The position numbers and the translations under genes are program-made. DNA of 64,000 nt from an uncultured Bacteroidales bacterium. Its GTDB lineage: Bacteria > Bacteroidota > Bacteroidia > Bacteroidales > WCHB1-69. The notes beneath the pieces are model-generated. The model was not told where the DNA came from. It was given only the letters and a program-made list of their open reading frames with translations, and did no database searches. Below, in pieces: positions 5,308 through 57,422 of the stretch (position 1 is the stretch's first letter; each line of letters opens with the position of its first letter). The stretch lies in contig CAMJXE010000005.1 of the NCBI GenBank assembly GCA_946409645.1, positions 6,631 through 70,630 of the forward strand, in the 5' to 3' direction.

Positions 5308-7116
5308 CTATTTGATGTTGAGTTCTTTCATTCGTTGTTCGAGGTCGGTGCGCGCCACCTTTCTATTGATGTAGTATTCAGCCAGTAAGCTGGCGATAGG
5401 GCAGGCCACAGTAGCCCCGAAGCCACCGTTTTCCACCAGGCAGAAGATGACGATTTTTGGGTCGTTGGCCGGAGCGATGAGAGCGAATACTGAGTGGTCG
5501 CGACCATGTGGGTTCTGCGCGGTACCGGTCTTGCCAGCTACCTCAATACCAGGAATTTGCGCTCCACGACCGGTACCGCCGGTCACCACCATTTTCATGC
5601 CTTGGAGAACCGTTTCGAAATGACGCGGCTCAATCTTTGAATAGACCTTCTCATTGAATTGTGTGTTCAAACTGTCGCGATTGCCGATGGCTCGCACCAC
5701 ATGTGGACGGATGTAGTAGCCTTTGTTAGCGATAACAGCCAGCATATTGGCCATTTGCAACGGAGTGACCGCTGCTTCGCCTTGACCGATACCCATGGAA
5801 ACCACAGTGTTACCGTTCCAGCTGTTGTTGTATTTTTTGTCGAAATATTCCGCTGTCGGGATTCGTCCCTTCAACTCATAAGGCAGGTCGGTGTTGAATT
5901 GCTGTAGAAAACCCATGGAGCTCATGTAGTCCAGCCAAGCGGAGTATGATTCGTCAATGTTCTTGTATTTCTTTCGGTTAGAAAGAATATTGTAATAAGC
6001 ACGGCAGAAGAAGGTGTTGCAGGAACGTTGAATGGCGCTGTATATATTCAGTCCGCCGCAATTATGGCAGTGTACCACGTGATTGCCAAGGTGATAACCA
6101 CCGCCGGAGCAGGAGTATATGGTGGAGGAAGTGATGATATTGTCTTGTAATGCAATAAGTCCGTTGGCCAGTTTGAAGGTGGAACCGGGTGGGTAGGCAG
6201 CTTGTAATGCTCTGTTAAACAGTGGTTTTTCGGGATCCATCACTAATTTGCCGTAGTTTTTCGGGCGGGCGGTACCTACCAGCAGGTTCGGGTCGTAGTT
6301 GGGACTGGAGACCAGACAGAGAATCTCTCCTGTTTTTGGTTCTATCGCGACTATCGCGCCACGTTTTCCCGCCATCAGCTCTTCGCCGTAGCGTTGCAAT
6401 TGCATGTCGAGGGTGCTCCAAATGGAGACCCCTGGTACAGCCACTACATCGTCATCGCCGTTGTTAAACGGTCCGACCTCACGGTTGTGCACATCCACCA
6501 GCACCTTCTGTTTGCCCTTCACACCGCGCAAAATCGATTCGTAAGCCTTTTCGATACCGCTTTTACCGATATAATCGCCCATTCTGTAATAGCCATCGTT
6601 CTCCACATCTTGTTCATCCACCTCACTGACATAGCCAAGGATGTGGGCAGCAATTGGTTGCGGATAGGTACGAAGAGTACGCTCTTGTACGAAAAAGCCT
6701 GGAAATTCAGACATTTTCTCCTGCAAATAGCCATAATCCTCTTTAGAGATCTGTTGTTTGAAAAGGGAAGGAACACTACCGGAATATTTCGCGGCCTTCT
6801 CGATTTTTTTTCGCACCTCCTCCATTTCCATATCTAACACGCGGCATAGTTCCATGGTGTCGAAATCGCGTAACTCCTTGGGTACCACCATTAAATCGTA
6901 TGCGGCATCATTATACACCAACAGCGAGTCGTTGCGATCGTAAATGAATCCACGCGCAGGATGAATAGTCTTCTCACGGATAGCGTTTTCATTGGCTTTA
7001 CGTTGGTAGGACTTGTCCAGCACTTGTAAATCGAACAGCCGTATGGTGTAAACGATAATAAGAATACCCAATACGGTGAGGATGATATAATAGCGGTTGC
7101 TGTTGTCCTGTGCCAT
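5308..7116 (-). CDS. mrdA: Penicillin-binding protein 2 (transpeptidase)
   Basis: N-terminal TM helix, transpeptidase motifs STFK and KTGTAQ, and the conserved pairing with rodA. Confidence 0.9.
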   Translation of the reverse strand: MAQDNSNRYYIILTVLGILIIVYTIRLFDLQVLDKSYQRKANENAIREKTIHPARGFIYDRNDSLLVYNDAAYDLMVVPKELRDFDTMELCRVLDMEMEEVRKKIEKAAKYSGSVPSLFKQQISKEDYGYLQEKMSEFPGFFVQERTLRTYPQPIAAHILGYVSEVDEQDVENDGYYRMGDYIGKSGIEKAYESILRGVKGKQKVLVDVHNREVGPFNNGDDDVVAVPGVSIWSTLDMQLQRYGEELMAGKRGAIVAIEPKTGEILCLVSSPNYDPNLLVGTARPKNYGKLVMDPEKPLFNRALQAAYPPGSTFKLANGLIALQDNIITSSTIYSCSGGGYHLGNHVVHCHNCGGLNIYSAIQRSCNTFFCRAYYNILSNRKKYKNIDESYSAWLDYMSSMGFLQQFNTDLPYELKGRIPTAEYFDKKYNNSWNGNTVVSMGIGQGEAAVTPLQMANMLAVIANKGYYIRPHVVRAIGNRDSLNTQFNEKVYSKIEPRHFETVLQGMKMVVTGGTGRGAQIPGIEVAGKTGTAQNPHGRDHSVFALIAPANDPKIVIFCLVENGGFGATVACPIASLLAEYYINRKVARTDLEQRMKELNIK

Positions 7117-37344: not shown

Positions 37345-38688
37345 ATGGCAAAAAGAACGACTATAACCTTTTTGATGACACTCTTGTTCGGGGCGGCTTA
37401 TGCGCAGGACACGGCAGTGATGACCCTGCGCGACTGCGTGCGTTACGCGCTGTCGCATTCAGCGGAGGTGCGCGTGCTGCAGGCCGATCTTGGGGACGCG
37501 CAGTTAGCCCGCCGAAACGCCATCCTCAACGCTTTCACCCCGGAGATTGACGCCAATACATACGCCTATTCCAACTTCGGGCGCTCCATTGACCCTGAGA
37601 CCAATATCTACAGCAACACCACCTCCTTCCACAATGGCTACAGTCTATCCGCAGGTATCACCCTCTTTAACGGCTTTCGCGCAATCAACAACATGAAAAT
37701 CACGAAGATTGCGGAGGCGACGGGTGTGACGAGAATTCAGCAGACGGAGGACAAAATCACGCTTGCCACGATGGAGGCCTACTGCAATGTGCTCTATTAC
37801 ACGGAGTTGTTGAAAACGCTACAGTCGCAGACGGAGACTGCGGAGACGGCCTTGCGGCTCGCGCAACGGCAGAGGGAGTTGGGGCAGAAGTCGCCGGCGG
37901 AGGTACTGCAGATGGAGGCAGACCTCTCCGACCGCAGGTACAGGTTCATCGTCTGTGAGAACCAACTTCAGAACTCCTATATCACGTTGAAAGACATTAT
38001 GTTATATCCGACAGAACAGCCATTTTCCGTCACGAATGTGGAGACGGACACGATGCTGTCGGATGTGGTACGTACGATGAAAGTGAGTCAAGCGGCGGAG
38101 CGTCTGCCGGCCGTAATCATAGCCGAAAATGAGTGGCAGACCGCCCGCCTCGCCCTCAAAACCGCGAAGTGGCAGCTGTTGCCGTCGCTGTCGTTGTATG
38201 GCGGCTGGTCCTCGACCTACTTCACCTACCCGGGACGGGCTGACTACGTGCCCGTTCCCTATTGGAGGCAACTCTCCGACAACGGCGGCGAGTACGTGCA
38301 GTTGTCGCTGAGCATCCCGATTTACGACCGTCTGTCGCGGCAGACGGAAATCGCACGGCGACGCAATGACTGCGACCGTGCGGAAGCCCGATACGCGCAG
38401 GCACGGCAGACCGTGGAAGCCGAAATCCACCGCGCCCTTGCCGACCGCGACGGAGCTGCCGCTGCCCTTCAGCAGGCCGAGCAGCACTCCGCTTTACAAC
38501 AGCAGTTGTACGCCATGAGCGTCCGCCAGTTCGAGCAGGGCCTCATCTCCGCCCTCGACTACCAGACCGTTGCCGACAACCACCTCACCGCCGTTGCCGA
38601 CCTCCTCAACGCGCGGTTGCAGCTGTTTCTGAAGACGTGGGTGGTGCGATACTATTTTCAATTAAGAATGCAGAATTCAGATTTATAG
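37345..38688 (+). CDS. TolC-family outer membrane efflux protein
   Basis: Signal peptide MAKRTTITFLMTLLFGAAYAQ and two OEP repeats. The ORF-track start at 37312 is the ATG inside REP-A. Confidence 0.85.
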   Translation: MAKRTTITFLMTLLFGAAYAQDTAVMTLRDCVRYALSHSAEVRVLQADLGDAQLARRNAILNAFTPEIDANTYAYSNFGRSIDPETNIYSNTTSFHNGYSLSAGITLFNGFRAINNMKITKIAEATGVTRIQQTEDKITLATMEAYCNVLYYTELLKTLQSQTETAETALRLAQRQRELGQKSPAEVLQMEADLSDRRYRFIVCENQLQNSYITLKDIMLYPTEQPFSVTNVETDTMLSDVVRTMKVSQAAERLPAVIIAENEWQTARLALKTAKWQLLPSLSLYGGWSSTYFTYPGRADYVPVPYWRQLSDNGGEYVQLSLSIPIYDRLSRQTEIARRRNDCDRAEARYAQARQTVEAEIHRALADRDGAAAALQQAEQHSALQQQLYAMSVRQFEQGLISALDYQTVADNHLTAVADLLNARLQLFLKTWVVRYYFQLRMQNSDL

Positions 38689-52353: not shown

Positions 52354-52385
52354 TGTATAGAGACGCAATGCATTGCGTTTCTACA
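52354..52385. repeat. REP-A copy 10 (variant loop); overlaps the stop codon of cassette C
   Basis: tgtatagagacgcaatgcattgcgtttctaca. Confidence 0.8.
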
Positions 52386-53721
52386 TCTTCTCCTTTAGGA
52401 AACGTTTCAGCAGGAAGGCGAGAAAATAGGGGAATGTGTAGAAGCTTCCGTTCCAACCGATGTTCTTGTATCCGAATTTGATGCCGTATTTGACTTCAGG
52501 ATAGGAATCCCATTTGATCAGGTTGTTCAGCGAAGCCGTCGTCCCGTCTTTGGCCTTCACCTCAACGGGAATCAGCGAATCGGCATCCCTTACAAAGAAA
52601 TCCATCTCTACGGCAGGATTGTCATGTTTATAGAAGTACAATTGTTCATAGCCCGACTTGCGCAACATCTCGCCGACCACATTCTCATAGACGGCACCTT
52701 TGTACGTTCCGAAGTTTCGATTGACCCTGAGATCGTCCTGTGCCTCCTCGTCTAACGAAGCAATCAGCAGACCTGTATCGTGGTAATAGATTTTGTAAAA
52801 ATCGGGATCATAATTACCTTTCAGCGGCAACTCCACGTTGTTTAGGCAATAACAGACATTGATCACGCCAGCCTCTTTCAACCACTCCACAGCACCGATA
52901 TACTCCCGGTTACGCGCACCTTTGGCAACCTTCGTGATCTGGAACTTTTTGTTTTCTTTCGCCAAGAATGTCGGGATGTGGCTATACACTGCAAGAACTT
53001 TTGCCTTGTCTGTCTCCTTGGCATATTTCGTGATGTCTTCCTCATAATCTTTCAGAAGCTGGCGTTGCAGTTTCAACGTTCCGCCGAAATGGCCGTTGTC
53101 AATGTACATTTTGACCACCTCCGGCATACCACCGAGTGTCATATAATCGCGGAAAATCCCCATATAGGTGTCCATCTCAAGCTGCGAGAAAGGCTTTAGT
53201 GAAAGCGTATGGGCAAAAAGGTCTTCGACCTGTTCCTTAGAATAGCCTTTGGCCCACAAAAATTCCTCGAAATCCATTGAAAACATGTCGTAATCTTCTT
53301 TGTAACCGACTGCATTCGATTCGATTTCTTCGTAATAGATGCCCATAAGCGAGCCCGAGCAAATCACATCGAAACGCCGGTCCTGACAAAATGACTTGAG
53401 TGAGGTAGCACAGTCGGGACATTTCTGCAACTCATCGAAAAACAGCAGAGTCCTGTTTGGGATAATCTTCCACGACGGTTCCAGAATGCTGATGTTCTTG
53501 ATAATCTGGTCCACCTCGTAGCCATCGTTGAAGATATTGCGGAATTTCTTCTGAAGCATGAAATTCATTTCGAGTACAGAATCGTAGTTTACACGTCCAA
53601 AAGCTCTGATAGATTCAGTTTTACCAATTTGTCTGGCTCCTTTCACTATCAAAGGTTTCCTTTTTGGGTTGCTCTTCCAGTCCGATAGGAATGTATCTAT
53701 TTTTCTTTCAAGTAGTTCCAT
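52381..53721 (-). CDS. AAA+ ATPase (AAA_14-type) with DUF4143 / PD-(D/E)xK nuclease-like C-terminus: cassette C
   Basis: Walker A GARQIGKT, Walker B LLFFDELQ, and C-terminal VEMDFFV..IPVEVKAKDG. Confidence 0.85.
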   Translation of the reverse strand: MELLERKIDTFLSDWKSNPKRKPLIVKGARQIGKTESIRAFGRVNYDSVLEMNFMLQKKFRNIFNDGYEVDQIIKNISILEPSWKIIPNRTLLFFDELQKCPDCATSLKSFCQDRRFDVICSGSLMGIYYEEIESNAVGYKEDYDMFSMDFEEFLWAKGYSKEQVEDLFAHTLSLKPFSQLEMDTYMGIFRDYMTLGGMPEVVKMYIDNGHFGGTLKLQRQLLKDYEEDITKYAKETDKAKVLAVYSHIPTFLAKENKKFQITKVAKGARNREYIGAVEWLKEAGVINVCYCLNNVELPLKGNYDPDFYKIYYHDTGLLIASLDEEAQDDLRVNRNFGTYKGAVYENVVGEMLRKSGYEQLYFYKHDNPAVEMDFFVRDADSLIPVEVKAKDGTTASLNNLIKWDSYPEVKYGIKFGYKNIGWNGSFYTFPYFLAFLLKRFLKEKM

Positions 53722-53877: not shown

Positions 53878-53945
53878 GAACGTGGTGCCCCGGTTTGTGT
53901 TTCCAAGTAATTTGAAACAACACGCATTGGTGTCATAATATTTTG

Positions 53946-53953
53946 TACTTTTG
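53946..53953 (+). promoter_or_regulatory. -7 box TACTTTTG with no nearby start codon (265 nt upstream of ATG 54218)
   Basis: tgTACTTTTGct. The transcript would begin about 70 nt before the 11-bp repeat array. Confidence 0.4.
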
Positions 53954-54026
53954 CTGAAGTGAATTGAATGTCATTGAAAGCTCGTAGCATCGTCATAGTA
54001 AGCTTGTTGCGTCGATGATGAGAGCA

Positions 54027-54131
54027 AGGATACTCGATTGATATTCGAATGATACACAATTCATATTCGATTGTTTTTCGAAAAAAATCGAATATCAATC
54101 GAAAAAGAATCGAATATCAATCGAATATCAG
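54027..54131. repeat. Divergent array of nine 11-bp units (consensus TCGAATATCAA) around an A-tract centre
   Basis: Plus strand, 54088-54131: tcgaatatcaa tcgaaaaagaa tcgaatatcaa tcgaatatcag. Minus strand, 54081 down to 54027: tcgaaaaacaa tcgaatatgaa ttgtgtatcat tcgaatatcaa tcgagtatcct. Confidence 0.85.
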
Positions 54132-54217
54132 AGGACGCATCTACGAGCCTGCATAGGCGCAAGGAGGTAGGAACAGCGAAAGAACAATATTATATCATCA
54201 ATAAAACCGAACATGTT

Positions 54218-54949
54218 ATGGAAAAAAAAGGAATCACTTTCACTGGGAGTCTCCGCTCGGACGGAATCACCATCTATCAGAAACAGGGCAAGACCATTAT
54301 ACGCTCGTCGAGCAGGAGCACATCGAAAGGCTTTACGATAAAGCAGTTCATACAGCGGCAGCGGATGCGCCATGCCATCGCTTTGTGGCGGGAGCTGGAG
54401 CATTGCTATCCGATGTTCACCGGAGCCAAATCAGCCTACAACGGCTTCGTGTCACTGGCCAACCGTCTGCCCGCCGTCTTCGTCACCAAGGACGAGGCCA
54501 TGCGTCATCCGTCGTTCCTTATGCCCGGCATCCCCGTAAGCGACGGCACCCTTTCGGAATTGAAGCTGCGACTGGGCGAGGTGGACGGCACGGCAGCCTT
54601 GATAACCAACATCGAAAGGTATGAGACACCTTTTACGGAAACGCTAAAACTTTACATTGCCGAACAGACCAACGAATATAATTTCCCAAGAGTGAAATTC
54701 CGTATGCGAAACGTCTTGAAGGAGGAGCTGGTTGAAACGGGAAACGGTCTGGCCTTGGTGGGGGATGAGTTTGCCGACGACAACAAGGGCTGGGCGTTGG
54801 TGCTGGTGATGGGCGACCGTTGCTCTCCGCAGAGCATCGTCACGCGCTGCACACTCTACCGGCAGTTCACCACCGAAGAGGTGATGAACGAAGCCGCCAA
54901 GACCTACGGCCCCATCAAGGAAAGTCCTTTCCCGTCGCCGAGGAGATAG
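54218..54949 (+). CDS. Hypothetical 243-aa protein, no recognised domain
   Basis: Intact ORF from ATG 54218 (MEKKGITFTGSLRSDG..). The N-terminal part of the ORF-track version (from 54071) is the 11-bp array read as protein. Confidence 0.5.
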   Translation: MEKKGITFTGSLRSDGITIYQKQGKTIIRSSSRSTSKGFTIKQFIQRQRMRHAIALWRELEHCYPMFTGAKSAYNGFVSLANRLPAVFVTKDEAMRHPSFLMPGIPVSDGTLSELKLRLGEVDGTAALITNIERYETPFTETLKLYIAEQTNEYNFPRVKFRMRNVLKEELVETGNGLALVGDEFADDNKGWALVLVMGDRCSPQSIVTRCTLYRQFTTEEVMNEAAKTYGPIKESPFPSPRR

Positions 54950-54969
54950 ATGGCGTGTAAAGAATCCTT

Positions 54970-55293
54970 TTGGAAATCAACCCGGAGGCAAACTTGGACG
55001 AGCTTTTTCGCCCGCTTGAAAATAGCCGTGCTACTGAAATGAAATTAGGAAGGGAAAAGGCTCGATTAAAAGACCGCCCAAACCATGCCAGTTGGTTGCG
55101 CATTTATGCCATAAAACTAAACCCGGGCATATATGTTGTTACTGGTGGTGCAATAAAATTGACTCGTACGATGCAGGAACGGGAGCATACGCTCAAAGAA
55201 CTGGTAAAGATGGAGAAGGTGCGCCAATACCTTGTCGCGAACAATGTGATAGATGACGACAGTTTTACAGATTTCATCAAAGAAAAAGGATAA
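54970..55293 (+). CDS. Putative type II toxin (HigB / Gp49-like); start uncertain
   Basis: ..ASWLRIYAIKLNPGIYVVTGGAIKLT.. core, 4 nt upstream of an XRE-HTH gene. It opens with TTG. An ATG at 54950 (abutting the upstream stop, TAGATG) would be in frame only with one extra T in the T4 run at 54968-54971. Confidence 0.45.
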   Translation: MEINPEANLDELFRPLENSRATEMKLGREKARLKDRPNHASWLRIYAIKLNPGIYVVTGGAIKLTRTMQEREHTLKELVKMEKVRQYLVANNVIDDDSFTDFIKEKG

Positions 55294-55297
55294 GAAA

Positions 55298-55609
55298 ATG
55301 AAAACCGCAGCAGAACAAATAGCGTTTTTGGAGGAACATTCTTCGTCTGAACCTTCGAAGTGGCGCGAGAAGGCGGAATGGCGGAGAGCGAACCACGACT
55401 GGCTCCGCTATTCGCGGAAAATCGCCATCGTCGTGGCCTTGTCTTTGGAAGAACTGAACATGTCCCAAAAGCAGTTGGCGGAACTTGTCGGCTGCTCCCC
55501 GCAATATATTTCCCGGCAGCTGAAGGGCGAGGAAAACCTCACTTTGGAGACGTTATGCAAGTTGGAGCGGGCACGGAACCGTCCCATCATGCAGCAGGTT
55601 TTTGCATAA
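55298..55609 (+). CDS. XRE-family helix-turn-helix protein (HigA-like antitoxin / regulator)
   Basis: HTH segment NMSQKQLAELVGCSPQYISRQLKGEENLTLETLCKLE; 103 aa. Confidence 0.7.
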   Translation: MKTAAEQIAFLEEHSSSEPSKWREKAEWRRANHDWLRYSRKIAIVVALSLEELNMSQKQLAELVGCSPQYISRQLKGEENLTLETLCKLERARNRPIMQQVFA

Positions 55610-55988: not shown

Positions 55989-57422
55989 ATGCTGAGAAGA
56001 AAAATTGAAAATACCCTTCGGGAATGGAAAGACACACCGAATCATTTGCCGCTTGTCATTATGGGAATTCGCCAATGCGGAAAGACCTTTATCGTCAGAA
56101 AATTTGCAGAGGAAAATTACAAGTATGTCTATTACATGAACTTTATTAAGCAACCCAAACGCATTGGTGCATTTTTGGGATCCAAAGAAGTTGATGCGAT
56201 TCTTCTGGAGCTTTCCACCCAAATAAAAGGAGCTAATTTCGTTCCCGGACAAACCTGTTTCATCTTTGATGAAATTCAAGACTGTCCAGATGCCCGTACT
56301 TCTTTGAAGTTTTTCAAAGAGGATGGACGTTTCGATGTTATTGCAACAGGCTCCCTTTTGGGCGTTTTAGGTTATGGCGAGAAGAAAAAGAAGTTGAAAA
56401 GAAAACATAAGGATGATATGCAGTTGGGGAAAAATTCTGTTCCTGTTGGTTTTGAAGACATCGTGCAGATGTATCCGCTTGATTTCGAAGAGTTCCTTTG
56501 GGCAAATGGAATCTCAGAAGATGTGATTGTGTTTCTTAAAGACTGTTTGTCAGACGAAAAACCAGTGCCTGTTGGAATACATCTCACTATGAATAATCTT
56601 CTGAATCGTTATGTCGCTGTTGGCGGTTTGCCCGCAGCTGTAAACAAGTTGCTGGATACCAGTAATATGAGCAAGGTTGATGCCGTCCTCCGTAGGATTT
56701 TGAAAGAATACAAAGATGACATGGTGAAATATGCTAACGATGACGACAAACCCTACATACGAGGGTGCTTTGATTCCATTACCAAACAGCTTGCCAAAGA
56801 CTATAAAAAGTTTCAATACAATCTCATCAAAAAAGATGGTCGTGCGGAAGATTATGCCGGATCACTTCAATGGTTGGAAGATGCTGGAATGATCCGTCGC
56901 TGCTATAATACTGAAGCGACGGGTTTGCCAATGGAAGGAAATGCTATCGAATCAACCTTTAAAGTGTATGTCACTGACATCGGTTTACTTACGACTATGC
57001 TTGGCGGTTCCACACGAAATGACATCATACAAGGAAACTTGGGCGGTTTCAAGGGTGCTATTTACGAGAATTTGATGGCAGATACGCTTCACAAGAAAGA
57101 ACAGGCCTTGTACTATTATCGCAAGGAATCCGGTATGGAACTGGACTTTTTGATTAGCTACAAGGGCGAATGTGTTCCTGTTGAAGTCAAGGCCAAGACC
57201 TCCAAAGCCAAGAGCCTTTCAACTGCACTGAAGCATCCAGATAAGTATCATATATATCACGCCATAAAGTTTGGTGATTTCAACATCGGCCGCGAAGGTC
57301 CTTTGTTGACACTTCCGAACTATATGCAGTTCCTTTTGGAGTTGGAACCCGAAGAAATCATTTTGGAGCATATTGATGCAGAAGAACTTAACCGCATGAC
57401 AAAAGAGCTGTTGGAGAAATAG
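55989..57422 (+). CDS. AAA+ ATPase (AAA_14-type) with DUF4143 / PD-(D/E)xK nuclease-like C-terminus: cassette D
   Basis: Walker A GIRQCGKT, Walker B CFIFDEIQ, and C-terminal MELDFLI..VPVEVKAKTS. Confidence 0.85.
   Translation: MLRRKIENTLREWKDTPNHLPLVIMGIRQCGKTFIVRKFAEENYKYVYYMNFIKQPKRIGAFLGSKEVDAILLELSTQIKGANFVPGQTCFIFDEIQDCPDARTSLKFFKEDGRFDVIATGSLLGVLGYGEKKKKLKRKHKDDMQLGKNSVPVGFEDIVQMYPLDFEEFLWANGISEDVIVFLKDCLSDEKPVPVGIHLTMNNLLNRYVAVGGLPAAVNKLLDTSNMSKVDAVLRRILKEYKDDMVKYANDDDKPYIRGCFDSITKQLAKDYKKFQYNLIKKDGRAEDYAGSLQWLEDAGMIRRCYNTEATGLPMEGNAIESTFKVYVTDIGLLTTMLGGSTRNDIIQGNLGGFKGAIYENLMADTLHKKEQALYYYRKESGMELDFLISYKGECVPVEVKAKTSKAKSLSTALKHPDKYHIYHAIKFGDFNIGREGPLLTLPNYMQFLLELEPEEIILEHIDAEELNRMTKELLEK

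Follow-up and report, generated by a model that had tools for sequence, protein, structure and literature searches.

The window, a stretch of 64,000 nucleotides from an uncultured Bacteroidales bacterium, carries on its forward strand a 1.03-kb cassette (53940..54969, limits set by homology boundaries) that consists of a promoter box, a structured leader, a gene for a 243-aa protein and a 3' tail of 20 nt. The gene (54218..54949, plus strand) belongs to an uncharacterised Bacteroidales family, and in its product a beta-sandwich follows a basic N-terminal region. Within the leader stands an array of nine 11-bp units that diverge from a short A-tract. Both the 243-aa gene and its array element are undescribed. 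To judge from comparison of related genomes, the cassette appears to be a mobile single-gene unit widespread in rumen Bacteroidales.

The right array (54088..54131, plus strand) contains four 11-bp units of the TCGAATATCAA type, namely TCGAATATCAA (54088-54098), TCGAAAAAGAA (54099-54109), a second TCGAATATCAA (54110-54120) and TCGAATATCAG (54121-54131). The left array (54027..54081, minus strand) contains five, which read directly from the sequence as TCGAAAAACAA (54081-54071), TCGAATATGAA (54070-54060), TTGTGTATCAT (54059-54049, degenerate at 5/11), TCGAATATCAA (54048-54038) and TCGAGTATCCT (54037-54027, 8/11). Two of the left units are close to the consensus, one matches it at 8/11 and one is degenerate. 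The polarity of the units switches at the A-tract centre (54081/54082-54087), and the centres of homologous arrays are equally short and AT-rich. The count of nine divergent repeats in the preliminary description, four plus and five minus, is confirmed by direct reading and by Tandem Repeats Finder, which reports period 11 in both halves. Its distance of about 90 nt from the array to the ATG at 54218 is borne out (~87 nt from the array end), and the peptide translated through the array is indeed spurious, since the homologues all begin at the ATG. With up to one mismatch allowed, the 11-bp unit occurs seven times in the window against 1.72 expected, a count that 0 of 100 shuffles reached, so the array is non-random; five of the seven matches fall within 54038-54131. 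Directly 5' of the left array, and at the equivalent place in most homologous leaders across many lineages, there is a conserved box GCAAGG(G)AGTA (in the window GAGCAAGGATAC, 54022-54033); it looks like a Shine-Dalgarno sequence and could be a functional site in its own right.

The two halves of the array form an imperfect inverted repeat whose arms are 81% complementary over 43 nt and 73% over 66 nt. The preliminary description missed a larger nested palindrome of ~190-200 nt, whose core is the array. Its outer left arm (53975..53994, plus strand) pairs with the outer right arm (54134..54153, plus strand) at 75% (inverted repeat I6), and the block that holds both arms is kept in three genomic copies. 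In other copies, the right outer flank is itself a 22-nt tandem repeat, CGCATCTACGAGCCTACAACGA, present one to three times.

The limits of the cassette emerge when the host genome (G000) is compared with G065, which encodes an identical protein, and with G017, whose protein is 78% identical. At the right edge, homology among G000:C5, G065:C33 and G017:C126 stops at the identical base (...GTGTAAAGAATCCTT), 20 nt past the stop codon at window position 54969, and three unrelated sequences follow in the three genomes. At the left edge, homology to G017 starts at about ATTTTGTACTTTTGC, near 53940. A target duplication was looked for at the window cassette and not found, and the two ends share only a weak 7/9 inverted match (ATTTTGTAC / GTAAAGAAT). 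Just inside the left edge is a Bacteroidota-type -7 box, TACTTTTG (53946..53953, plus strand), which matches TAnnTTTG and is kept in five gene-linked copies of the window's array type (type A). This box had been taken for an orphan. Across the gene family, however, 57 of 69 distinct upstream regions contain a perfect TAnnTTTG, placed 73-203 nt before the array centre (mode 116, most 104-145), and a single one of the 69 has such a box between array and ATG. Such conservation corrects the earlier view and marks the window box as the promoter of the cassette. The array would then sit downstream of this putative promoter, inside a leader of ~270 nt, a placement that had gone unnoticed.

The 243-aa protein has 1290 homologues at E<=0.001; clustering at 50% identity gives 155 clusters. 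It matches no family in Pfam, NCBIfam, PHROG or PADLOC, and a PDB sequence search with it returned nothing. An AlphaFold2 model (mean pLDDT 87, with low confidence in the N-terminal 40 residues) runs from basic, low-confidence beta-hairpins at the N terminus through a long helix, which bears the conserved Q43, F44, R47 and W57, to an Ig-like beta-sandwich. Foldseek against the PDB gave no informative fold (best E 0.01, to Ig-like domains), and the one match in BFVD, to an uncharacterised viral protein, is weak (E 1e-5, TM 0.41). In the basic N-terminal region, R29, R47, Q43, T18 and Y20 are conserved across the family. Searches of the protein found no recognisable DNA-binding domain, no transposase, nuclease or recombinase signature and no HUH/H-x-H motif. 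The family's conserved residues do not include the acidic or histidine set expected of an enzyme, a pattern that speaks for a binding protein rather than a transposase or nuclease. Shine-Dalgarno sequences are uncommon in Bacteroidota. Many family members nevertheless have a canonical one (AGGAG/AAGGAG) 6-10 nt before the ATG, for example at L059, L057, L137, L144 and L168, whereas the window copy of the gene lacks one of this kind.

The array accompanies the gene family throughout, so the conservation check proposed at the outset is passed and the description of a phased, iteron-like array upstream of a hypothetical gene is upheld wherever the family occurs. Fourteen homologue loci were read by eye (proteins 45-100% identical, among them the 48% identical paralogue in the host genome), and in all of them a divergent 11-bp array precedes the gene. 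These arrays have roughly 4+4 units with an 11-bp period and a short AT-rich centre, and 81-174 nt separate them from the ATG. Rumen metagenomes, when scanned, yielded 80 further loci, and in 68 of 69 distinct upstream regions the strongest period is 11 or 22. From 103 units the family-wide consensus is TCGAAnAACwA, and individual lineages have their own units, such as TCGAATATCAA, TCGAAGAACTA, CCGAAGAACAA, ACGGAGAACTC and ACGAATAACAA. The two paralogues of the host genome (48% identity) each have their own unit type. At the level of whole genomes within the genus, the family protein is found in 10 of 11 genomes with arrays and in 1 of 44 without (Fisher 4e-9, an upper bound on the significance that is inflated by kinship).

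Within this common plan, the arrays vary in length and sequence. Where orthologous loci share identical flanks, the four right-arm units of the window correspond to five in G009 and six in G059, with a fixed left arm; elsewhere among the homologue arrays the left arm has four or five units. In some lineages one arm is reduced to phased ACG...AA. The outer flanks differ in sequence, yet they remain periodic at 11 or 22 bp and inverted, and one outer-flank repeat, GGTGCAAATAC, is present in two, three or four copies. The persistence of the 11/22-bp period in flanks of different sequence suggests that helical phasing is the constraint. Moreover, identical proteins are found behind arrays that have different units at one position (TCGAAAAAGAA, TCGAATACCAA or TCGAATATCAA), so recognition cannot be strict beyond TCGAA..A. 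Read across the family, conservation falls on a short core, an 11-bp phase over eight or more turns and a switch of polarity, not on the pairing of one arm with the other.

The element also occurs apart from the gene. A block of ~190 nt around the array is present in three copies in the 3.1-Mb host metagenome-assembled genome (at C5, which is the window, and at C11 and C45), with 85-87% identity and with homology limited to the block; of the 55 species of the genus, 8 have it, in many cases at the end of a contig. Arrays of a second type, type B, were located in the host genome at C1, C4, C6, C20/C7, C60 and C101 with a strict two-unit pattern for which the reversed-pattern control gave 0. The array at C20/C7 is the leader of the paralogue, split by the assembly. 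A looser whole-genome scan for units was noisy (132 matches against 46 in the reversed control), and the copy count takes in only loci confirmed by the strict pattern. Together, types A and B occupy eight loci in the host genome, six of them without the gene; one copy of each type adjoins its own paralogue, and both types have gene-less copies. In other species the number ranges from 0 to about 9. For the gene-less copy types in G065 and G061, no matching paralogue was found in these two assemblies, both of which are incomplete. Of eight independent gene-less loci, seven are co-oriented with the next downstream gene and lie 100-375 nt before its ATG (binomial p = 0.035). Type B copies have terminal inverted repeats of 16-17 bp (CCAAGTATTTGGCAAGG) and retain the leader up to ~35 nt before the position of the ATG. 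The end of C20 (~38114-38177) and the start of C101 (1-35) share one 35-nt sequence in opposite orientations, directly after half a palindrome. The palindrome probably gave rise here to a fold-back or assembly artefact, which would explain the split of the paralogue's leader between C20 and C7.

The C4 locus is polymorphic for the presence of the element: a segment of ~430 nt that contains it is missing from no fewer than five other species. The junctions are marked by a direct repeat of 10 bp, TAAAATTGTA, and the cut falls inside the -7 box TATCTTTG of a downstream glycosyltransferase gene. The insert has about twice the palindrome's length, and a sixth species, G065, has only a short part of the segment; this intermediate form makes deletion between the direct repeats an alternative to insertion. 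Empty sites were also sought at C45 and C6. At C45 the flanks are rearranged, with a break 84 nt before the element, and at C6 there is no synteny, so that neither locus shows a clean empty site. No transposase linked to the element was found at the loci examined. Two features of these surroundings may be recorded in passing. At C4, the direct repeats enclose a series of 7-bp repeats, AATAACC/CATAACC (C4 38830-38870), and G065 has such a series as well (C21 ~38146-38168), there without the palindrome. Just downstream of the C45 copy are two dispersed repeats of ~180 nt and ~68 nt (L016, ~6230-6420 and ~6130-6200), each with many copies across the genus.

The genes around the cassette vary from locus to locus and include M48 peptidases with an HTH, RhuM, SNF2 or SLFN helicases, FRG, NYN and PDC-S01 ATPases, a neighbourhood that by its gene content looks typical of accessory or defence islands. 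In the window, a toxin-like 107-aa gene and an XRE gene (54970-55609) follow the cassette, outside its end at 54969, and match components B and C of the PADLOC candidate system PDC-M64. Of the 96 other homologue loci, 95 lack this pair. The sole exception, L065 (G061:C105, 2531-3167), has a pair whose proteins are 95% and 86% identical to those of the window (XRE 86%), downstream of a paralogue only ~45% identical and next to a different unit, ACGGAGAACTC; the pair may have become associated with the gene family on two occasions, or may recombine beside it. Farther out, the window cassette is flanked by DUF4143 AAA ATPases (52381-53721, minus strand, and 55989-57422, plus strand) with strong PDC-S01 matches in PADLOC (E 1e-150 and 1e-142).

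On present evidence from the sequence, we prefer to read the array as a cooperative protein-binding operator. A phased protein-binding DNA site, possibly bound by the cassette's own basic protein, seems to us a plausible though tentative explanation, somewhat short of probable. In this model a mobile single-gene cassette would carry a cis-acting nucleoprotein site, with the array at the site's core. The 11-bp spacing of two opposed sets of about four units would place every core on one face of the helix, and a sequence-specific protein would bind cooperatively, one copy per helical turn, as two head-to-head arrays. The complex, just downstream of the cassette promoter, would throttle the 243-aa gene in a form of autoregulation. 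The most economical candidate for the binder is the cassette's own product, with its strongly basic N-terminal region, although its binding to the array, like the action of the element as DNA and the sign of the effect as repression, is something we infer. Gene-less copies would be derivatives of the leader that persist or insert beside other genes and attract the same protein there. Against an operator stands the location of the array centre ~100 nt downstream of the presumed transcription start; operators in such a position are unusual though known. Also to be counted against the model are the failure to recognise a DNA-binding domain in the protein, the different units behind identical proteins, and the gene-less copy types of G065 and G061 for which these incomplete assemblies show no matching paralogue.

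Because the array lies in the leader, the element is necessarily also RNA, and a turn of A-form RNA likewise takes 11 bp. A long imperfect hairpin that sets stability or translation might form in the first ~200 nt of the transcript, with transcription starting at the foot of the palindrome from the -7 box and with RNase III cleavage, or binding of the RNA by the cassette protein, as the effector step, for example. We judge this account on balance somewhat unlikely. In its favour, the array follows the promoter box and precedes the ATG in 57 of 69 regions, with a box downstream of it in just one, and the window element folds strongly on both strands (z = -5.3 and -7.1). Over +-100 nt the sense strand folds ~4 kcal/mol better than the antisense (42 versus 21 loci, Wilcoxon p = 5e-4), which may hint at selection at the RNA level, and alignments of the type A outer stem show a few sense-strand changes that look compensatory or wobble. 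On the other hand, the strand comparison of fold energies for 13 arrays is mixed, and the wobble signature of an RNA helix, G.U in excess of A.C on the sense strand, was not found in 51 non-redundant arrays. Their inner arms are 70% complementary, with 106 G.U, 95 A.C and 392 non-wobble mismatches, the last making up about two thirds of the total; in their outer arms, 158 G.U stand against 215 A.C, and an earlier set of 12 arrays gave 14 G.U and 30 A.C. Mirror-partner units are barely more similar than non-partners (7.26 of 11 positions shared versus 6.1-7.0), even though the centre was chosen to maximise the partner score. Units are gained and lost independently in the two arms, one arm is too degenerate for pairing in some lineages, and at least the gene-less copies at C4 and C101 lie upstream of the neighbour's own -7 box and hence outside its leader. 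No Rfam family matches at the gathering score; matches to miRNA-precursor models (25-38 bits against gathering scores of 63-95 bits) are below threshold and were set aside as generic hairpin noise. Taken together, these tests are negative for selection on pairing, and a DNA-binding array with phased units is accordingly preferred.

The dispersed copies invite a different account, a selfish repeat akin to REPINs or MITEs, in which a mobile palindrome uses its hairpin or cruciform as substrate and spreads to promoter-proximal sites, the 243-aa gene being either a maintained partner, as a RAYT is, or merely the seat of the founder copy. We consider this unlikely. The eight loci in the host genome, the terminal inverted repeats of type B, the presence/absence polymorphism at C4 with its 10-bp direct repeat and the frequent location of copies at contig ends all speak for it, and each paralogue has its own repeat type, as in RAYTs (PMC3116915). 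Yet copy numbers are low, the partner protein has no enzymatic signature or conserved acidic residues, the C4 insert is about twice as long as the palindrome and may reflect deletion, and neither the window nor C45 and C6 yields a target duplication or a clean empty site, respectively. A purely selfish repeat would also leave unexplained the constant place of the array in the leader of every family member. A combined version, decidedly unlikely in our estimate, would have a nucleic-acid-binding 243-aa protein maintain and spread, in REPIN/RAYT-like manner, palindromes that insert in TA|nnTTTG and duplicate the box. The 243-aa product would then represent a new class of sequence-specific nucleic-acid-binding protein that has no enzymatic signature and regulates itself through its palindromes; if so, genes for T9SS cargo, PorP-like proteins, a glycosyltransferase and a methylase would stand under the same factor and form a mobile regulon in rumen Bacteroidales. 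Highly improbable, finally, are the proposals of the preliminary description that the array is an operator of the nearby XRE protein or a plasmid or phage iteron or partition site. Phased 11-bp arrays do resemble parC, and an XRE gene is close by, but that gene is external to the cassette and missing from nearly all homologue loci, with the lone exception beside a different unit type. Neither the array nor the protein has a DNA or protein match in plasmid or phage collections apart from one weak partial match in IMG/VR, no Rep, ParA, ParM or ParR-like gene was found, and homologue loci lie on contigs of up to 621 kb.

Set against known systems, the element is nearest to autoregulatory iteron operators in mechanism and to REPIN-RAYT in genomic behaviour, and it fails the defining protein feature of both. 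[quoted passage not shown] Common to R1 parC and the array are two clusters of about 4-5 units of 11 bp, each tied to the promoter of the adjacent gene. In R1, however, the clusters consist of direct repeats, one cluster on either side of a 39-bp promoter core, whereas here they are inverted and abut across 3-12 bp, ~100 nt downstream of the -7 box, off any plasmid, with gene-less copies and without a ParM- or ParR-like gene. Examined as a ParR-parC system, the family therefore shows the phased clusters of 10-12-bp repeats (period 11, 4+5 units, family-wide) but no genes for an RHH/HTH centromere-binding protein and motor ATPase and no plasmid or prophage setting. Plasmid replication iterons are direct repeats of 17-22 bp beside a winged-helix Rep gene and an AT-rich origin; the units here are 11 bp and inverted, and the AlphaFold2 model has no Rep-like match. 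Another 11-bp arrangement is that of the Pho and SARP boxes, sites for winged-helix proteins of the OmpR/PhoB family, in which core plus spacer recurs head to tail every 11 bp and one monomer binds per turn. Those boxes comprise 2-6 direct repeats upstream of or overlapping the -35 element, in contrast to the divergent arrays described here, to which no response-regulator gene is linked.

REPINs are palindromic intergenic repeats with a cognate single-copy RAYT gene, a distinct flavour for each paralogue and co-occurrence of repeat and gene across genomes (PMC3116915). The element shares the dispersed palindromes, the copy beside a single gene, the paralogue-specific repeat flavour and the co-occurrence at genome level. 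RAYTs, on the other hand, are tyrosine transposases of the IS200/IS605-like HUH type flanked by REPs, and the 243-aa protein has no such domain or motif; no HUH/Y1 transposase partner was recognised by Pfam match, H-x-H, acidic residues or fold match. The element here is found only 5' of the gene, in the leader, its copies number fewer than 10 as against tens to hundreds of REPINs, and its arms are built from 11-bp tandem units, unlike those of REPINs. As for MITEs, terminal inverted repeats are present in type B (16-17 bp) and type A has outer inverted arms, but no linked transposase was found from whose autonomous insertion sequence the ends could derive. Correia/NEMIS and ERIC elements are 100-200 bp long with inverted ends, lie near genes, are co-transcribed and can alter expression. 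Unlike the element described here, they are not known to have internal arrays of 11-bp units or a tie to one protein family; ERIC and NEMIS are both named in PMC3116915. A ToxIN-like type III toxin-antitoxin was also considered and rejected, given units of 11 nt in inverted order, no match to a ToxN or toxin fold and no PADLOC match. In such systems, direct tandem RNA repeats of ~36-45 nt lie upstream of an endoribonuclease with the ToxN fold.

The family at issue is an unannotated group of more than 1000 members in gut and rumen Bacteroidales, sited in defence or accessory islands. Its array ranks among the most regular cis-elements in bacterial DNA, with eight or more phased turns and a central switch of polarity. 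The leader offers a direct experimental handle on the function of the protein and possibly a new DNA-recognition module, and the arrays explain why metagenome assemblies break at these loci. To our knowledge, little is known of cis-regulatory DNA and mobile repeats in Bacteroidota. Gene-less copies beside genes for surface or secretion functions, together with the one candidate insertion into a -7 box, point to possible promoter rewiring in this phylum.

Arrays of this general kind may be a wider habit of the host genome. A loose genome scan of G000 recovered a second, unrelated family of 11-bp tandem repeats (C47:4118-4161, C44:23710-23753, C31:887-930, C39:3921-3956 and C105:6406-6438), examples of which are four copies of ACGATGAATAA, four of GCGATGAAAGG and three of CGATGAACGAA.
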